Source: Planctomycetota bacterium
GTDB taxonomy: Bacteria > Planctomycetota > GCA-002687715 > DRQF01
Length of the DNA: 16,058 nt
Assembly: GCA_027001995.1 (NCBI GenBank)
Contig: JALTLO010000088.1
Coordinates: forward strand, 61,277 to 77,334
Direction of reading: 5' to 3'
Part shown: positions 1,219 to 11,662 of the stretch, piece by piece
Layout of the letters: every line of letters begins with the position of its first letter
Position numbering within the stretch: the first letter of the stretch is position 1
Translations under genes and position numbers: made by a program
The notes under the pieces: generated by a model
What the model was told of the DNA's origin: nothing
Databases searched by the model: none
The model's input: the letters and a program-made list of their open reading frames with translations, nothing else

Positions 1219-2613
1219 ATGAACTTAGAAACACAAAGAAATGACGAAGGACGTTTTAATCCCCATGACTACCAGTCTTTTCATCATGACCAGGTGGTGA
1301 TGACAAATCGGGGCTTTCAACTGCACTATTCTCTTTCCGGGGAGAATAGTAAGTCTTTGCGCTTTCAGGAAATCATCGAATTCGAATCGGGCTTTGAAGG
1401 TTTGTCTTCCCCGTGCGCTCTCGCTGTTGAACGTGCGGCTCAGCTTCTTTTTCAAATCGCCGGGGTGAGCTATTTCAAACTGGCGGCCCCCAATAGGGTG
1501 AAATACTCAGGCTTAGTTTGTGGCCGTCGTCGTGATTTTCTGAGCCGCGTTTTTAAGCTTGGTCTGTCTGAGTTTGCTCATGTCAACAATCTTGATTTGA
1601 GTCATCTTGAGATTCTGGGGGATGAAGATGTTCCAGAACAGCGGGGGCAAACTGAAGTCCCCTTGGCTCTGGGGTTGGGGAAGAAGGTGTTGCTGCCTTT
1701 TGGCGGTGGCAAGGATTCGCTGCTGTCCTTGCAGCTCCTGGTCCGAGCCGGATTTGATGTTTCCTTGATTGTTGTTGGCCCTAACCCGGTGGCGGAGCAC
1801 TTGGCCGAAAAAACCGGAAAAAGAGTGATTCGTGTGAAACGCCTTCTTGATCCCCAGGTTAAAACCCTCAACGGTCAAGGAGCCCTCAATGGACACGTTC
1901 CAGTGACGGCCATCGTTTCTTTGATCGCCATCTTGGCTGCCCTCAAGGATGGTTTTTCGGCGGTGGTCATGTCGAACGAAAGCTCGGCCAATGTCGGTTC
2001 ATTTGTGGGCAAGGATTTGGTGGAAGTCAACCATCAATATTCCAAAAGCCTGGCTTTCGAAACCTCTCTAAGAGATGAACTTCAACATTTGGGTTTAGGG
2101 GAACTCGAATATTTTTCTTTGTTGCGACCTATGTCCGAACTTATGATTTGCCGAAAGTTTGCTGCTCTTGGCAAGCACTTAGATGGCTTCGTCAGTTGCA
2201 ACAAAAACTTTCGCCGAGATGCATCAGGAAAGACAACAACTTGGTGTCTGACTTGCCCCAAATGTATCTTCGTTTACTTGTGCATGGCACCCTTTCTTGC
2301 TGTTGAGACCCTGGACGCAATCTTTGGCGGCAATCCCCTCGATCGTGGTGAGAGCCTCGAAATCTTGGCATCGCTCTTGGGTGTGGAAGGAAAGACGAGG
2401 CCATTCGATTGCGTCGGCGGGCCAGATGAATGTCATTTTGCTCTCGCAAGTTTGGCCAAGAGAAATGACACATCATCTTGGTTGTGCGTCCGCCACTATC
2501 GTTCCCATTGGTCTCAAGGTTATTCGAATCCGGAAGATTCGATGCTGTTTAGACTCAACGCCAATCATCTTGTCCCCCAACGATTCCTGGGAGCCCTTGA
2601 TGAAGTTCGCTGA
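1219..2613 (+). CDS. murL: UDP-N-acetylmuramoyl-L-alanyl-L-glutamate epimerase (MurL)
   Basis: PP-loop-like FGGGKDS plus the motifs GVSYFK, LNGHVPVTAI, MSNESSA, VNHQYSKS, YFSLLRP, SCNKNF, WCxxCPKCxFV and PFDCVG, which I recognise as MurL family. It overlaps a MurD-type ligase. GGGGAG RBS-like sequence lies just upstream. Confidence 0.9.
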   Translation: MNLETQRNDEGRFNPHDYQSFHHDQVVMTNRGFQLHYSLSGENSKSLRFQEIIEFESGFEGLSSPCALAVERAAQLLFQIAGVSYFKLAAPNRVKYSGLVCGRRRDFLSRVFKLGLSEFAHVNNLDLSHLEILGDEDVPEQRGQTEVPLALGLGKKVLLPFGGGKDSLLSLQLLVRAGFDVSLIVVGPNPVAEHLAEKTGKRVIRVKRLLDPQVKTLNGQGALNGHVPVTAIVSLIAILAALKDGFSAVVMSNESSANVGSFVGKDLVEVNHQYSKSLAFETSLRDELQHLGLGELEYFSLLRPMSELMICRKFAALGKHLDGFVSCNKNFRRDASGKTTTWCLTCPKCIFVYLCMAPFLAVETLDAIFGGNPLDRGESLEILASLLGVEGKTRPFDCVGGPDECHFALASLAKRNDTSSWLCVRHYRSHWSQGYSNPEDSMLFRLNANHLVPQRFLGALDEVR

Positions 2614-3955
2614 CTTAGCAGGAAAGAAAGTGGCTATCCTCGGAATGGGGCGAGAAGGGCGAAGCGTTCTGGTTGCCCTACGATCCCGACTTCCCCATCA
2701 GCATGTGACCTTGATAGACGAAGGCGACCTAGAGAATTCTCCTTTAGATCAATTTGAGTGGGATTCTTCTTTGCATCTGACCAAAGGTGATTTGACTCCA
2801 GCTCACTTGGCTGCTCTCGATGTACTCATTAAGTCCCCAGGAGTGAGCCTCTACCGCCAGGATCTACAAGAAGCCAAGAAATCCGGGCTTACCATTACAT
2901 CATTGACGAATCTTTGGTTAGCTGAGAACACCCATAGTCGTACCATTGTTGTCACGGGCACCAAGGGCAAGAGCACGACTGCGTCTTTGCTGGCTGAGTT
3001 ACTGAGAACTTTGGGGCAGCCAGTCTTCTTGCGGGGAAACGTCGGTCGTCCCCTTTTCGATCAAGAAGAACCGGAGGCGGACGCTGATACCGTTGTCATC
3101 GAGCTGTCGAGCTATCAACTTGCTGACTTGAAAGAAGAAGTTGATTTCGCTTTATTGACTAACTTGGCACCGGAACATTTGGACTGGCATTTAAGCGTGG
3201 AGAACTACTATCGCGACAAGCTCAATGTTTCTCACCGAGCCCATGTTGTTTTTGCCAATGGGAATGATGGCGAACTTGTGAATCGTCTTCAGCACTGTGA
3301 AGATTGTCGTTGGTTTGGCACCGAAGAATCCCTGACCTGGGATCAGCGAGGGGTTATTCTGGATGAGGGGGTTCTGGTTGAAAGAGAGGCCATAGCCCTG
3401 CGGGGTTTGCACAATGTGTCGAACGTTTGCGCAGCTTTGAGCCTTGCTCTTGAGCTGGGGGTCGACTTGGAAGATGCCAAGGAAGTTATTTCTCGCTTCG
3501 CCCCATTGCCCCATCGCTTAGAGGTCGTCGATCAAAAAAATGGCCGTACTTTCGTCAACGACAGTATTGCATCAACACCACTGGCAACTCTCGCAGCTCT
3601 TCGTTGTTGGACGGAAACTCCCCTTGCTCTTATTGTCGGTGGTGCAGACCGTGGGCTGCCCGTGGAGGAGTTTGTGGCGGCCATCTTGAAGGTACCCTCT
3701 TGCTATCAGGTTGAACTCATGGGAGATTTCGGTCTTCGATTCTTGAAAGAGTATGAATTCCAGCAGAATCGAGAAGGGCCAGGGCCCTCTGTTCACATGA
3801 ACGACGATTTGTCCCAAGCTGTTGACCGGTGCTGGAAATATTCCCGAGACCCCTCTGTTATTCTCCTTTCCCCAGGAGCACCCAGTTTTGATGCTTTTCG
3901 TGACTTCGCACATCGGGGTGAGCAGTTTCGAGAAATCGTGTCTCAGCTCGGATGA
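2600..3955 (+). CDS. murD2: MurD-family ligase, likely the L-glutamate-adding MurD2 type
   Basis: Start re-called at ATG 2600 (MKFADLAGKKVAILGMGREG), overlapping the murL stop by 14 nt. Motifs: KSPG, VTGTKGKSTT (P-loop), GNVG, VIELSSYQL, PEHLDWH, LPHRLE, FVNDS, LLSPGAPSFDAF. The MurD2 subtype is inferred from adjacency to murL. Confidence 0.88.
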   Translation: MKFADLAGKKVAILGMGREGRSVLVALRSRLPHQHVTLIDEGDLENSPLDQFEWDSSLHLTKGDLTPAHLAALDVLIKSPGVSLYRQDLQEAKKSGLTITSLTNLWLAENTHSRTIVVTGTKGKSTTASLLAELLRTLGQPVFLRGNVGRPLFDQEEPEADADTVVIELSSYQLADLKEEVDFALLTNLAPEHLDWHLSVENYYRDKLNVSHRAHVVFANGNDGELVNRLQHCEDCRWFGTEESLTWDQRGVILDEGVLVEREAIALRGLHNVSNVCAALSLALELGVDLEDAKEVISRFAPLPHRLEVVDQKNGRTFVNDSIASTPLATLAALRCWTETPLALIVGGADRGLPVEEFVAAILKVPSCYQVELMGDFGLRFLKEYEFQQNREGPGPSVHMNDDLSQAVDRCWKYSRDPSVILLSPGAPSFDAFRDFAHRGEQFREIVSQLG

Positions 3956-4949: not shown

Positions 4950-7007
4950 ATGACCAAGAAACTATTGAATATCATCGTGGCGATTTGCTTATTGGGCCTT
5001 GGAGCGTTGGCCCAAGAAACGATGACACCCGAGCTTTTGTGGAAACTCAAACGGGTGAGTGGGGGCAAGATTTCTCCCGATGGAAAATGGATGGTGTACG
5101 GTGTTCGCTCCTACGACCTCCAGGAGAATAAGGGGGACTCCGATCTGTTTCTGGCGCAACTGCCGAGTGGCGAAACACATGCTTTGACCCAGGGGCCAGG
5201 GAGTGAGGGGGCGGTTCAATGGGTGAATACAAAGCTTGGCTTAAGGCTCTTTTTCTTGTCAAGGCGAGGCAAAGATGCTTCCACGCAAGTATGGTCTTTA
5301 GACCCCAAGAGCGGTTCCATGACCGCAATCACCCATGAAGAGGGTGGTGTTGCCAATCTCAAGGTTTCTCCCGTCGGCACTCATATCGCTTTCACCAAAG
5401 ACATCAAGCTCGACGACACGGTGAACGATCTCTACGCCGACCTCCCTTTCGCAGACGCTCGGATTATCGATGGATTGATGTATAGGCATTGGGATTCCTG
5501 GCATGACTATAAGTATAGTCATCTCCATGTGGCTAAGCTTGGAGAGGACTTGAAGGCTGACAGGCCTGTTGATCTCATGAAGGGACTGAAGGTGGATTGC
5601 CCAGTGCCACCTTTTGGCGGGGCTGAACATTTCAATTGGTCTCCCGATGGCAAAGAGATTGCCTTCACCGCGAAGTTCTCCAACAACTGGGCCCAGTCCA
5701 CCGACAGTGACATTTACCTCATTCAGATTGATGGTGATGGTCGGCGTCAGTGCATAACCGCGGGGATGGACGGCTATGACAATGATCCAGTCTACTCACC
5801 CAATGGCAAGTACATAGCTTTTCATTCCATGGAGAGGCCAGGTTTTGAGTCTGACCGCAATCGTCTGATGATTTACGACCGTGCCACAGGGACGATCATC
5901 GATTTGTCCCAGGGTTTGGACCAGATGGTCCATGGGGCACTTTGGGCGCCAGACTCCAGTCGCTTATTTTTTATGTCCGAAATGCGCGGAACGAATCAGC
6001 TCTATTCTCTGGACTTGGTGGGCAAAACACTGAGGAGGTTGACGAAGAAGTCGCAGAAGAATTGGGGCATTCGGGATGTTACTCCAGACGGCAAGTCATT
6101 GTTGGTGAGCGTCCAAGATATGATTCGCCCCAACGAACTTGGCTTGCTCAGGTTGAAGGACGGCAGTTTCAAGGGCTTGACGGATGCGAACGGTCCTCTG
6201 TATCAAAACTTGAAAACCCCTCAGGTCCGTGAGCGTTGGGTGAAAGCAAGTGACGGCAAAAGAATTCACAGTTGGGTGATCTATCCCCCCAACTTTGATG
6301 CCAAGAAAAAGTGGCCTACGTTGGTCTATTTTCAGGGTGGCCCTCAAGGACAGATCGGCCAGTGGTTCAGCTTTCGTTGGAACTTCCACCTCATGGCGGC
6401 TCAAGGGTACGTCGTGGTGGCGCCAAATCGTCGGGGGCTTCCAGGGTTTGGTCGGGCTTGGAACGACGCGATTTCGAAGGATTGGGGCGGGCAAGCGATG
6501 CGTGACATCTTGGCTGTCACCGACGATATGGCCACGGAGTCTTACGTGGACGCTAAGCGCATGGGAGGCGTCGGCGCCAGTTTTGGCGGGTTCACTGCCT
6601 ATTGGATGATGGGCAATGCGAAACAGCGATTTGCCGCTATGATCGCCCATGCTGGTGTTTTTAACTTTGAATCGATGTATGGCGTGACGGAAGAGCTGTT
6701 TTTCGTCAACTGGGACTTAGGGGGGCCCTATTGGCGAAGCAAGGAACTCCAAAAGTCATACGACCGCTTTTCACCTCATCGCTTCGTTGCCAATTGGAAG
6801 ACCCCTTTGTTGGTCATTCACGGTGAAAAGGACTTTCGGGTTCCTATTGGGGAAGGTATGCAAGCATTCACCGCGGCCCAGCTCAAAGGAATTCCTAGTC
6901 GTTTCCTCTATTTTCCGGAGGAAGGGCATTGGGTTCAAAATCCCCAGAATGGCGTCCTCTGGCATCGTGTGTTTTTTGATTGGTTGGACCGTTTCTTGAA
7001 GCCATAG
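4950..7007 (+). CDS. S9 family serine peptidase (dipeptidyl-peptidase V / acylaminoacyl-peptidase-like), exported
   Basis: Signal peptide (ALA|QE). Beta-propeller repeats (ISPDGK, VSPVGT, WSPDGK, YSPNGK, WAPDSS, VTPDGK). GGPQG motif and catalytic triad contexts GASFGG, HGEKDFRVP and PEEGHW. Confidence 0.93.
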   Translation: MTKKLLNIIVAICLLGLGALAQETMTPELLWKLKRVSGGKISPDGKWMVYGVRSYDLQENKGDSDLFLAQLPSGETHALTQGPGSEGAVQWVNTKLGLRLFFLSRRGKDASTQVWSLDPKSGSMTAITHEEGGVANLKVSPVGTHIAFTKDIKLDDTVNDLYADLPFADARIIDGLMYRHWDSWHDYKYSHLHVAKLGEDLKADRPVDLMKGLKVDCPVPPFGGAEHFNWSPDGKEIAFTAKFSNNWAQSTDSDIYLIQIDGDGRRQCITAGMDGYDNDPVYSPNGKYIAFHSMERPGFESDRNRLMIYDRATGTIIDLSQGLDQMVHGALWAPDSSRLFFMSEMRGTNQLYSLDLVGKTLRRLTKKSQKNWGIRDVTPDGKSLLVSVQDMIRPNELGLLRLKDGSFKGLTDANGPLYQNLKTPQVRERWVKASDGKRIHSWVIYPPNFDAKKKWPTLVYFQGGPQGQIGQWFSFRWNFHLMAAQGYVVVAPNRRGLPGFGRAWNDAISKDWGGQAMRDILAVTDDMATESYVDAKRMGGVGASFGGFTAYWMMGNAKQRFAAMIAHAGVFNFESMYGVTEELFFVNWDLGGPYWRSKELQKSYDRFSPHRFVANWKTPLLVIHGEKDFRVPIGEGMQAFTAAQLKGIPSRFLYFPEEGHWVQNPQNGVLWHRVFFDWLDRFLKP

Positions 7008-7033
7008 CAGGGGCTCGATCGAAATCTAAAATG

Positions 7034-7080
7034 AAAAAAAGGGGCATGTCAGTGAAGCTGACATGCCCTCTTTATTTCTT
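7034..7080. terminator. Bidirectional intrinsic terminator between convergent genes
   Basis: Perfect 11-bp stem GGGCATGTCAG (7042-7052) / CTGACATGCCC (7058-7068) with a 5-nt loop. An A7 run on the left gives the U-tract for the minus strand, and a T-rich tract lies on the right. Confidence 0.88.
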
Positions 7081-7098
7081 CTCAAAGAACGTGGGGAA

Positions 7099-8001
7099 TT
7101 AGCTGTCCTTGAGGGATTTTGCAAAGTCATTGGCATCATTCGCTAAGCCAGTTTTTTTGGCTTTACTGATGAAACGACGGATTGCCCGTTTGGCGTCCTT
7201 GACATCCATGCTCTTGATGGCGTCCAGGCGCCCCTGAGCGGCCTCAATAATGGACTCTTTGGCTTCTGTGAGTTGCTGCTGCAAACTCTCTGGCAAGTTC
7301 TGTGGTTTCGGAGCTGCTTTCTCCAAAGCTTTGATGGCCTTGTCGAATTCCCCTTCATTCACCAAGTTGTTGCTTGAAATCACACCTTTCTTGATGGACT
7401 TCATCGTCTTGCGACTGACCCCCTTGCCAAACTTCTTCTTGAGCTTCTTAGTGGCTTCTTTGACAGCCTCCATGATCTTGCCAGCAGTGGCGCCCTTGAA
7501 GACGTGCATCTCTTTCAAATCGTGGGGGTTGATCAAGCTCGTATAGGGCACAAGGCCAGTTTTGTTGTAGGTGGCGGCTTTGCTCCGGTTGAGCTTCATG
7601 ATCTGACGAAAGGTCAAACTTGGCCATTGGACCATGTATTCGACTTTTTCACCCTGGGCGTTTTTCTTGGTGTAAGTGGCCGCCTTGCGGTCTTTCTTCT
7701 CAACAGCCTTGTCAAGTTTACTCAAGGAAAGAACTTCAACGGTGTGCTCATCGGCGAACTTGATGTACTTCTTATTCTGCATCACGGCAGAATGGACTCC
7801 CCAGCAGGAGCCTCAGTAAAAACCGTGGCTGTGCAGGACGATGGGTACGTTTAGGGCCTTGGCTTCTTCAACTGCTAGGTCCCAAGTCGCAGCGAATGTC
7901 ACCGTGTCTTTGATTTTGGGCTTCTTTTGGGCCCAGGCCGTATCCGACAAGGTGGCAAATGTGAGACTCAAGAGCATCAGGACGGCGAAAGTCCTCTTCA
8001 T
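7099..8001 (-). CDS. Exported thioredoxin-fold selenoprotein (UxxC; Sec63 encoded by in-frame TGA at 7813-7815), 300 aa
   Basis: GGAG RBS lies 8 nt before ATG 8001, followed by a signal peptide (AWA|QK). Reading through TGA gives ...TWDLAVEEAKALNVPIVLHSHGFY-U-GSCWGVHSAVMQNKKYIKFADEHTV..., in frame with ORF 7099-7785. A Trx-like cis-Pro segment (GLVPYTSLINP) and a helical Lys-rich C-terminus follow. A SECIS-like hairpin sits downstream of the TGA. Confidence 0.85.
7774..7793 (-). promoter_or_regulatory. Putative bacterial SECIS element
   Basis: mRNA AUUCUGC-CGUGAU-GCAGAAU forms a perfect 7-bp stem with a 6-nt loop that has G-U at loop positions 2-3. There are 26 nt between the UGA and the apical loop. 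Confidence 0.65.
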
Positions 8002-8273
8002 GCTATTCACTCCAGTTCGCAATGTTCGATTCAAATGGGGGGCTATGGATGTTCTCCTTATCCAAGCCCACTTACAACATATCAAGTGTAGGCGGTGATA
8101 GGCGGGATCTCCACCGCTGTGGAACTTCCCTGTTCCATGAACAAGCGAGATTGCCCAATTGATTCGGTTAATATGGGGAATGATAAAATAGTTTCCACAA
8201 GCCACCACCTAAGTGGCGATCTAAGCGTTAACATCAGCCTCGAAATTGTGATGAGCCCAGGAGTCATTCATCC

Positions 8274-8993
8274 ATGAAAACCGCTGTGACACGTCTGTTC
8301 GTCTTTGCCGTAAGTGCTTTATTCTTAGGAGGCTTATGTGCATGCCGTGACGATCTTGATCTTGAAACTGCTCAGGCGGTTCTGGTCAAGGACAATCGCA
8401 GGAAGCACCCATCCATCTATCAACCGGACCGTGATCAAAAGCGCTCGCCAGAGGTTTTTGAGGTGAAATTTCGGACCGCCAAGATCGGTAACTTTGTCAT
8501 TGAGGTCCACAGATCCTGGGCTCCCAGGGCGGCGGACCGCTTCTACAACTTGGTGGAAGCAGGTTTCTGGAAGGGAACATCCTTCATTCGGGTGATTCGT
8601 GGTCATGTGGTTCAATGGGGGATTCATGGCAACCCCATCGTGACGAAGTCTTGGCAAGAACAGGCATTCGACCCAGATCCTGTGGTGAAAACGAATAAGG
8701 CCGGATATGTGGCATTTGCTCCGGAAATCGGAACAGGTAAACCAGCGACGCAGATTTTGGTCAACCTCAGCGACCATCCCGATTATGACAAGGTTGGCTA
8801 TGCGCCCTTCGGCAGAATTACCCAAGGGTTTGACGTCTTGAATCGTTCTTTTGGACGTTATGGGGAATTTAAGGAAATTGGCAACAAGGACGGCATCAGT
8901 GTTAAGATGGTGGTCAAAAGAGGTGAACCCTACTTGGAACGCAACTTTCCCTTACTCACCAAGATTCGTTCAGCGCAGCTCACGGTCAAGTGA
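8274..8993 (+). CDS. Cyclophilin-type peptidyl-prolyl cis-trans isomerase, probable lipoprotein
   Basis: AGGAG RBS upstream and lipobox-like LGGLCA|C. Cyclophilin motifs G.FVIEVHRSWAPRAADRFYNLV..GFW, F.RVI.G.VVQWG, N..GYVAFA, TQILVNL and GYAPFG.I..G. Confidence 0.88.
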   Translation: MKTAVTRLFVFAVSALFLGGLCACRDDLDLETAQAVLVKDNRRKHPSIYQPDRDQKRSPEVFEVKFRTAKIGNFVIEVHRSWAPRAADRFYNLVEAGFWKGTSFIRVIRGHVVQWGIHGNPIVTKSWQEQAFDPDPVVKTNKAGYVAFAPEIGTGKPATQILVNLSDHPDYDKVGYAPFGRITQGFDVLNRSFGRYGEFKEIGNKDGISVKMVVKRGEPYLERNFPLLTKIRSAQLTVK

Positions 8994-10077: not shown

Positions 10078-11577
10078 TCAGAGTTTTTTGTACCACTTTT
10101 TGATGACCTCACATGCGGGCTTCCCGTGGACCGTATATTGCCTTTTGTCGTCTTTGTCCTTGTTGCGCCACCAAGTGTAGAAGAATGCACCCCTGAATCT
10201 TGGGGCGCCGTTTTGCCAGACTCGAAACCAAGCTTCGTAACAGTCGGCCTGCTCTTTCCAGTCAACCTTTTGAGGGCTGACATAGTCCCAAGGGTCCTTG
10301 TTGATGCCGTCCAAACTGGCATACCCCATTTCACTGAAGAAATAGGGTTTCTTTTCATTGGCTAAGGTCATCTCTAATTCTTTGCGAACTCGTCTCCAAG
10401 CTTGGGTTAATTCCTCGATGGAGGGATCGTCCTTTTTCGTCAGGCTGTGGTAGCCCGTCATGCCGATGGCGTCCAAATCATCCCACCATTGGATGACGTT
10501 GAGGTGATCCCAGTTGGCGGAGTAACTGAGGAGGCCAGAGAAACGTCGCCGAACTGAACGGATGACCTGACGCCAATGGGGCTCGTCTCTTTCTAATGAT
10601 GAAAATTCAGACCCGACGAGGAGTTCGTCTGCATGGTTCTCTTCGGCCAAGCTGGCGAAGGCTCCCATGAACTCTTGATAAGAAAGGAACCAGTCATCTT
10701 GGTCCTTAGGTTTGATGTCGCCACGCCAATGATCGTCCGTTGGTTTCCACAAAAGTACGATAGGCATGATGGCCACCCGTAGTCCTAGGGATTTTGCTTG
10801 TCGTATGACACGCCCTACCATGGGCAACGACGTGGAGCGGGTTTTCTTGGGGACCATTTCGCAACTGGTAAAATGATCAAGGAACCAAGGGGTGATGAGC
10901 AGGATGTCGGTGGCTCCTATGGCCACTTGTTCCCGCAAGAAGGGCTGGTAGTCGTAGTTGTCATCCCGGGAGTAAAGCCCCAAAGAGAACCCCTTGATAG
11001 GGTGGGCGGTCGGGGTTGGTTTCTTTTGACGGAGCTTGCGCCAAAATCCGGCTTTCCTTTTCTTCGCATCTTCTTCTGCGCCTCTGAGCTCCTGGGCGAA
11101 GCGCTTGTTCTTATCTGGTTCCAAGAAAGCTCCTAACCCAAGTTTGAGCATTTCTTGGTTGAGAAAGGCACCGGATGGGGTCCTGGCGTAAGCTAGGGTC
11201 TCAAAGCGTGCGTTTTTTCTGTTGTCATCAAAGGTCAGGGTCACATCTTGTCCCAGGGCGATCTTTTCCAGGGCGGCTTGTGATTCTTGGGCCCAGGCCT
11301 GGCTCCAGGAAAGCCCATGGGCAGGAGCATCGACACCAATGAGGCGGATGGTGTGGTCTCCTTCCACTTTGAAGGTCTCTCCCGACAAGACTTGGGTGAC
11401 TTTAGTTTCGCAGCGCATCGACTGTCTTTTATTCTTCGGAACGGCTTCAAAGTTCTTGCTGTGCTGTTCAAGTCCGGCGTCATCGGTCCAAACATAGGTT
11501 TGGGCCCCAAGCTGGGAAGCGAGGAAGAGAAAAAGGAACCCGGGGAACCAGTAGATGGGGTTTGGGGCGCTTGACAC
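10078..11577 (-). CDS. Exported fusion protein: short DUF4124-like segment + thermonuclease (SNase)-fold domain + GH113-like glycoside hydrolase TIM barrel
   Basis: Start re-called at GTG 11577 (or TTG 11580) behind AGGAAAGGGA, with signal ending LGA|QT. YVWTDDAG is DUF4124-like. SNase pattern: VTQVLSGETF...IRLIGVDAP...LAY...LNQEMLKLGLG...AEEDAKKRKAGFW. GH113-like pattern: WRGDIKP, WF.SY, VGSEF, SYSANWD, WWDDLDAIG..GY, FSEMGY, QADCYEA. Confidence 0.8.
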   Translation of the reverse strand: MSSAPNPIYWFPGFLFLFLASQLGAQTYVWTDDAGLEQHSKNFEAVPKNKRQSMRCETKVTQVLSGETFKVEGDHTIRLIGVDAPAHGLSWSQAWAQESQAALEKIALGQDVTLTFDDNRKNARFETLAYARTPSGAFLNQEMLKLGLGAFLEPDKNKRFAQELRGAEEDAKKRKAGFWRKLRQKKPTPTAHPIKGFSLGLYSRDDNYDYQPFLREQVAIGATDILLITPWFLDHFTSCEMVPKKTRSTSLPMVGRVIRQAKSLGLRVAIMPIVLLWKPTDDHWRGDIKPKDQDDWFLSYQEFMGAFASLAEENHADELLVGSEFSSLERDEPHWRQVIRSVRRRFSGLLSYSANWDHLNVIQWWDDLDAIGMTGYHSLTKKDDPSIEELTQAWRRVRKELEMTLANEKKPYFFSEMGYASLDGINKDPWDYVSPQKVDWKEQADCYEAWFRVWQNGAPRFRGAFFYTWWRNKDKDDKRQYTVHGKPACEVIKKWYKKL

Positions 11578-11600
11578 CAATCGTGTCCCTTTCCTATCAT
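11571..11600 (+). promoter_or_regulatory. Near-consensus sigma70 promoter for the 11663-14046 gene pair
   Basis: TTGACA (11571-11576), 18-nt spacer, TATCAT (11595-11600), about 60 nt upstream of ATG 11663. Confidence 0.6.
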
Positions 11601-11662
11601 GGCCTGTGCGGCCGATTGTGATTTTGCCCTGCTGCAAGTATCAGTTCTTTCTGGAGTTAGAG

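Follow-up and report, generated by a model that had tools for sequence, protein, structure and literature searches.

An apparently uncatalogued family of Planctomycetota selenoproteins, stored in databases mostly as two pieces

Positions 7099..8001 on the minus strand of the window, the whole stretch of 16,058 nucleotides that was analysed, form a genuine selenoprotein gene. Its family, found in Planctomycetota, appears not to have been catalogued, and databases mostly store its proteins cut in two at the UGA. Comparison with homologs strongly supports selenocysteine (Sec) as the almost certain identity of residue 63. No new mechanism is involved, UxxC thioredoxin-fold proteins being the commonest known class of bacterial selenoprotein according to the accessible part of PMC13188914; the mechanism and the class are known, and the family itself appears to be new. 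As the best explanation of the data as a whole we propose, with moderate confidence, that the protein is exported and acts as a selenol/thiol-disulfide reductase, with DsbD probably recharging it.

The gene and its surroundings

The gene comprises 300 codons and the stop TAA (7099-7101). Its only in-frame TGA is the codon of residue 63 (7813..7815), and homologs align over the whole length of the gene. As the sequence-only reading had described, the ORFs 7813-8208 and 7099-7785 share a frame and flank this one TGA. The junction reads H-G-F-Y-*-G-S-C-W, giving the redox motif U63-G-S-C66 (7804..7815; U-x-x-C in the family), and Cys66 is the sole cysteine of the 300-aa product. The ribosome binding site ascribed to the 5' part is a Shine-Dalgarno-like GGAG (8010..8013), 8 nt upstream of ATG 8001. 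The 3' part had been thought to lack an evident one; it does have GGAG 11 nt before GTG 7785, but this is no conserved restart signal, since homologs mostly read GGC-ATG at that place.

Residues 1-24 (7930..8001) form a putative cleavable signal peptide, called by eye (MKR, hydrophobic core, A-W-A) with a predicted cut after A-W-A; residues 1-20 have low pLDDT in the structural model. A hydrophobic stretch upstream of the site occurs in 84/84 homologs examined, a count with no control set beside it. Judged by inspection of the sequence, export of the protein from the cytoplasm is very probable.

A hairpin resembling a bidirectional intrinsic terminator by consensus match only (7041..7069, both strands carrying T tails) lies between this gene and a convergent one for an S9 peptidase, and the upstream cyclophilin gene is divergent, so that the selenoprotein gene probably stands alone. 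Clustering of neighbours across 88 loci, a noisy comparison that includes off-frame ORFs, revealed no functional partner and no conserved neighbour indicating a substrate or DsbD. It showed tandem paralogs of the family and, only among close kin, synteny with cyclophilin, kinase and S9 peptidase genes. Rfam gave 0 matches at E<=5 for positions 7000-8300, and a contig of the sequencing run that is possibly the source of this DNA (X1) shows no difference across the TGA; no run of RNA was among those listed with this sequence.

Two other loci of the window deserve mention. On the minus strand (10078-11637) an SNase domain is fused to a GH113 glycoside hydrolase domain; on the plus strand (1219-3955) a 464-aa ORF without Pfam match is followed by a MurD-like ligase, recognized by eye, and the two presumably resemble the MurL/MurD2 pair.

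Residue 63, selenium machinery and the downstream hairpin

Among 91 distinct homologous sites the codon at residue 63 is TGA in 74 and a cysteine codon (TGC/TGT) in 13; the 4 others (D/G/G/E) belong to low-scoring relatives, and tryptophan never occurs. With TGA at that column in 74/91 sites, its position is not a matter of chance. Cysteine stands at +3 in every TGA gene (74/74, all UxxC). These counts are not a census, as 30 loci and 39 stretches, strongest first, were fetched from 220 profile matches. Family sites occupy 63 genomes or contigs, of which 57 have a TGA copy. The TGA is kept in these at 25-63% protein identity, and homolog alignments span both of its sides, as the sequence-only reading had predicted. 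The cysteine homologs are single proteins of ~300 aa rather than pairs of separate ones.

The core subfamily, characterized by H-x-H-G-F-Y-U, consists of 46 TGA genes and 13 Cys genes, and only cysteine alternates with TGA in it; both forms coexist in 5 genomes, and the Cys form is found alone in 8. The loci fetched contain 28 more distant TGA genes, and the distant subfamilies H-G-S-T-U, H-K-D-x-U and H-A-E-H-U have exclusively TGA there. Search with the single protein gave matches in 16/41 related genomes. A profile of the part after the UGA, which covers only that part and leaves codons to be read from the fetched loci, matched 120/401 phylum genomes at E<=1e-5, many of them weakly. Wherever a homolog source is named it is a planctomycete (6/6 titled contigs, 3/3 source names giving an organism).

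The consequences for annotation are visible in a clustered protein library, where, of 145 matches, 81 have their start immediately behind the site and 17 (one of them wrongly sorted by the pattern) stop immediately ahead of it; 16 span the site with CxxC, 7 span it without CxxC (one being an unrelated chance match) and 24 are partial. The two halves of the present gene are themselves stored as separate library proteins (P0050 and P0202). A further 67 database proteins comprise 42 with a CxxC pattern, 24 short fragments and 1 variant. Library source names are "hypothetical protein" except for one stray label, and the cluster features of one Cys homolog are unnamed and Thioredoxin_7 Planctomycetota clusters. 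The spanning matches without CxxC (7/145), together with the D/G/G/E sites (4/91), indicate that redox chemistry is dispensable in some relatives. No longer fused form was seen among 7,995 candidates of 598-2000 aa, which is weak evidence. Two family copies look like pseudogenes or assembly errors: L021 (genome G001) has an in-frame TAA downstream of the UGA, and L033 (G004) stops early with its remainder in a separate piece.

The selA, selB, selC and selD genes, whose presence the sequence-only reading had proposed to check, are all there in this 92% complete genome: selA, selD and the tRNA-Sec lie together on contig C148 and selB on C17, all passing their cut-offs. The selD gene itself has an in-frame TGA. 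TGA is also the commonest stop of long ORFs (834/1998) and tRNA-Trp(CCA) is normal, which argues that TGA is not reassigned in this organism. The selA gene was found in 60/61 family-bearing genomes searched; this enrichment is weak, consistent with the reading rather than decisive, as 290/401 genomes of the phylum sample have selA in any case and kin are not independent.

A bSECIS-like hairpin follows the TGA (7774..7793), with a 7-bp stem and a 6-nt loop that begins 26 nt after the UGA and has G at its position 2. The bSECIS model (PMC13188914 Fig 2, as far as accessible) asks for a 3-9 nt loop with G in its first two positions, a 4-16 bp stem, a distance of 16-37 nt after the UGA and an energy at or below -7.5 kcal/mol. 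Spacing, stem and loop G of the query hairpin conform, whereas its isolated energy is -6.9 kcal/mol against the limit of -7.5; the 60-nt region reaches -18.1 with a second hairpin (z -1.5), and folding z-scores of longer regions are unremarkable (-0.4 to -1.5). In one fixed test the hairpin was detected in 67/74 TGA genes versus 5.6 expected from synonymous shuffles, 7/74 failing, and in 2/13 Cys genes versus 0.5 expected; kin not being independent, the counts overstate the number of events. The background is given by the 206,150 TGA triplets of this genome, 6.6% of which pass.

The hairpins fall into two registers. In the first, shared by 26 TGA genes including the query, a 6-bp core is invariant even at synonymous sites and is broken in Cys genes; it forces codons such as CAT-TCT even at GC3 above 0.9, and these never occur in Cys genes. 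In the other 48 genes, distant members among them, the loop starts at +23 and is GGUC in 30, and the stem shows C-G/G-C/A-U and C-G/U-A/G-C exchanges, that is, changes on both sides of pairs. Part of this second stem follows from the H-x-x-V protein sequence, and that part of the stem is seen in Cys genes too, but the loops of the Cys genes lack the G-G/U start.

A quick IQ-TREE tree, midpoint-rooted, covers 82 proteins; 5 of the 87 Sec/Cys genes, being short or broken, were excluded, and residue 63 was given one common letter throughout the alignment. It needs at least 7 Sec/Cys changes, 4 of them forced by well-supported branches, and its midpoint root places all Cys copies inside Sec clades. 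This suggests repeated replacement of Sec by Cys, often after duplication, with a direction that is only inferred because the root is a midpoint. Tandem family pairs about 1 kb apart occur in L047, L049, L066, L082, L084, L091-L093, L095, L098 and L109; they are Sec+Cys in L047 and L049 and Sec+Sec in the remainder. In the present genome the family is represented by one Sec copy, alongside several distantly related paralogs that lack CxxC (C163, C177, C19 and C99).

Relation to known families

Pfam and NCBIfam searches with the query yielded nothing near a cut-off, and no curated family model claims it, in agreement with the earlier surmise of an undescribed family. A literature search, conducted without most subscription papers, found no description of this family. 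PMC13188914 (2026) inventories 119 selenoprotein families, many of them UxxC thioredoxin-like (Table 1). No row of that table fits by HMM or described architecture, rows without an HMM of their own being compared by name and motif only, and the accessible text does not mention Planctomycetes. The accessible part of the deep-Sep paper (PMC12013277) has no thioredoxin among its new families, and that of PMC1794560 has nothing on this family. PMC4807772, in the part available, reports two split candidates termed "thiol-disulfide isomerase-like thioredoxin" and a hypothetical protein in a planctomycete. These, compared by description, may equal the present family.

The UxxC selenoproteins catalogued in the accessible Table 1 of PMC13188914 (PF00085, PF13098, cd02966, SaoT NF040730, HUIPC NF047660) share with this family the thioredoxin fold, Sec in first position, a SECIS within the coding region and the existence of Cys homologs. 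Unlike them, the query has an insertion of ~55 aa, a five-helix C-terminal domain, a signal peptide and the H-x-H-G-F-Y-U context. It matches none of their models, and weak matches to Thioredoxin_7 and Thioredoxin_2 come from some Cys homologs only. Thioredoxin_7 (PF13899) scores 13.1 bits with the query against a cut-off of 27, and 11/71 members match it (best E 3e-9).

DsbH, a periplasmic reducing dithiol oxidoreductase (PMC5193440, accessible part), has 20% identity to the query, Cys rather than Sec and no helical C-terminal domain; its model NF043050 does not match the query and matches 6/45 members weakly (best E 0.002). The Trx7/PDZ family NF041199 and TsoB (NF045694, rhodanese/DsbD-like) share with the query a Thioredoxin_7-like start (W..A..EA...N.P) and the use of Sec, and the query lacks the PDZ domain of the former and the rhodanese domain of the latter. 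The TsoB model does not match the query and is weakly matched by 29/45 members (best E 2e-4), the lowest E reached by any member being 5e-5. NF041199 gave no match to the query at E<=0.01 and finds other genes of this genome, on C86 and C197.

Two more candidates were rejected. The UGSC protein model NF041046 has no query match at E<=10 and is not among the families listed for members; the U-G-S-C likeness is coincidental, as GSC occurs in 1/74 TGA genes. Matches of the query to TATA-binding proteins fall on its Lys-rich helical part and were judged compositional.

Predicted structure and proposed role

The AlphaFold2 model, computed on a 71-sequence alignment, has pLDDT 93.4. It predicts a thioredoxin-fold domain (about residues 25-192; 7426..7929) with a strand 54-60, an active-site helix 64-74, strands 88-94, 153-157 and 164-168 and a helix 173-191, followed by an all-helical C-terminal domain of five helices (about residues 193-300; 7102..7425) that is conserved in the family. 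As anticipated, U63 stands where the helix that follows strand 1 begins. The thioredoxin domain is interrupted between its strands 2 and 3 by an insertion of ~55 residues (96-144; helix, beta-hairpin, helices). Pro152 (7546..7548) is a candidate for the cis-Pro of the loop proposed earlier: it is invariant in both alignments and located just before strand 153-157, at the cis-Pro place of thioredoxins. His57 is invariant, and His59 and His70 nearly so, beside the motif.

Residues ~30-190 match thioredoxin-fold proteins, which make up nearly all listed matches. The best is Chlamydia DsbH (2ju5; Foldseek E 3e-5, Z 12.3, rmsd 3.1, 123 aligned), followed by DsbD C-terminal domains and AGR/UAS domains. 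The C-terminal domain folded alone reaches pLDDT 94, and its fold search turned up nothing specific (Z not above 7.2, no Foldseek match at E<=0.001); TPR-like proteins are among its best matches, with Z within the helical-bundle background. Search by sequence among solved structures returned generic helical proteins only. This domain had been described as basic and helical, and it is helical in the model; its charge of +9, versus +15 in the thioredoxin part, is not specific to it, and 56 core homologs have a median of +4 (range -7 to +12). Selection of substrates or partners is probably the function of the insertion and of the helical domain, which is the weakest step of the proposal.

In the proposed mechanism, SelB and tRNA-Sec would insert selenocysteine at UGA63 under the guidance of the hairpin that lies 26 nt downstream, and the signal peptide would take the mature protein of ~31 kDa out of the cytoplasm. 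From its place where the active-site helix begins, the selenolate of Sec63 would attack an oxidised substrate (a disulfide or a sulfenylated cysteine), and Cys66, by analogy with thioredoxin chemistry, would resolve the intermediate to a Se-S bond. Recharging would most likely fall to the DsbD-type transporter of the genome. The gene for the latter (genome G000, C20 ~23018-25406, plus strand; L123:519-2906) is interrupted by a TGA within the C-terminal thioredoxin domain; with read-through it encodes F-T-G-Y-T-U-P-N-C followed by some 110 further residues, and this TGA did not pass the hairpin filter. The DsbD of this genome is thus probably Sec-containing (U-P-N-C).

The Y-U-G-S-C motif of the sequence-only reading is correct for this gene, but the family consensus is U-G-P-C (GPC in 35/74 TGA genes, GSC in 1/74). 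The G-P dipeptide is of the thioredoxin, reducing type. Together with the resemblance of the protein to DsbH and DsbD-gamma, it speaks for a reductase rather than an oxidase, and we consider the reductase role with recharging by DsbD to be rather likely.

An exported selenoprotein of another kind, an isomerase or oxidase or a redox-switched holdase chaperone, is a less likely but serious alternative. CnoX/YbbN is a cytoplasmic chaperedoxin, not known to contain Sec, made of a thioredoxin and a TPR part, and it has the same two-domain layout, thioredoxin and then helical. The YbbN chain 3qdn is among the fold matches (Z 8.2, 164 aligned over residues 32-265), TPR proteins are among the best matches of the C-terminal domain, and relatives as well as paralogs in this genome lacking CxxC keep the scaffold. 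Moreover, neither DsbB nor VKOR was found in this 92%-complete genome, which leaves the oxidative route of the cell without an account. However, the YbbN match is poor beyond the thioredoxin domain (rmsd 9.5), the Z of at most 7.2 for the C-terminal domain is that of helical-bundle background, and the consensus G-P dipeptide is of the reducing type.

It is improbable that U63 and C66, together with H57, H59 and H70, act on a metal(loid) or a small molecule, by binding or reduction, instead of on protein disulfides. The conservation of the three histidines beside the motif would suit such a function, and the large insertion could form a pocket, but distant members replace H59 by K or A and H70, a residue within the stretch under SECIS constraint, by Y or D, and no metal-handling neighbour stood out in the noisy neighbour clustering. 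That the TGA is a true stop (of a pseudogene, of two proteins or through assembly error) or is read as Trp or Gly is effectively refuted: databases store the two parts separately and GGAG precedes GTG 7785, but 57 genomes or contigs retain the TGA, with coding conserved on both sides and Cys as the sole core alternative, the 3' piece alone would be missing both strand 1 and the signal peptide, and both the prevalence of TGA as a stop and the normal tRNA-Trp(CCA) speak against reassignment.

With the exported reductase as the preferred reading, the family adds a sizeable, systematically mis-split member to the bacterial selenoproteome and allows its annotation to be fixed. Matched Sec/Cys paralog pairs in one genome and the two SECIS registers offer a test bed for the benefit of Sec to a thioredoxin and for the flexibility of SelB. 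The family also suggests that Planctomycetota use selenium to a large extent for redox control outside the cytoplasm. In this genome, about ten other genes of the thioredoxin fold that have TGA as the first codon of the xxC motif were picked by eye from 56 candidates (on C27, C43, C44, C58 at 37783, C68, C76, C86, C105, C138 and C197); they include W-U-G-P-C redoxins, VPG-U and Trx7/PDZ genes, and C68 has two TGA sites in one frame. As a tentative picture, uncultured Planctomycetota might run a selenium-based redox network in the envelope, in which a Sec-DsbD feeds about ten UxxC thioredoxin-fold proteins including this family; the latter would be ancestrally Sec, repeatedly spinning off Cys back-up copies, with its SECIS moved by 4 nt in one lineage.

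Several other TGA-containing genes of this genome were noticed. The gene on C44 (5498, plus strand; L117:480-1421) encodes an exported-looking thioredoxin-plus-helical protein with Y-A-P-U-P-P-C and a GGUC-loop hairpin; it was ruled out as a member of the present family (hhalign probability 11%). A protein encoded on C58 (61213, minus strand; L119:223-2271) resembles, by eye, an efflux membrane-fusion subunit with N-terminal C-x-x-H...C-x-x-C repeats. A TGA occupies the Cys position of one repeat (Q-C-P-L-U) and is followed by a hairpin, making it a possible unlisted metal-binding selenoprotein. A small membrane-type ORF on C141 (23633, minus strand) has V-F-A-U-P-N-C and a GGUC-loop hairpin. 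Finally, AhpD/CMD-like genes on C22 (51244, minus strand) and C185 (626, minus strand) carry C-H-Y-U with hairpins and probably belong to a known family.
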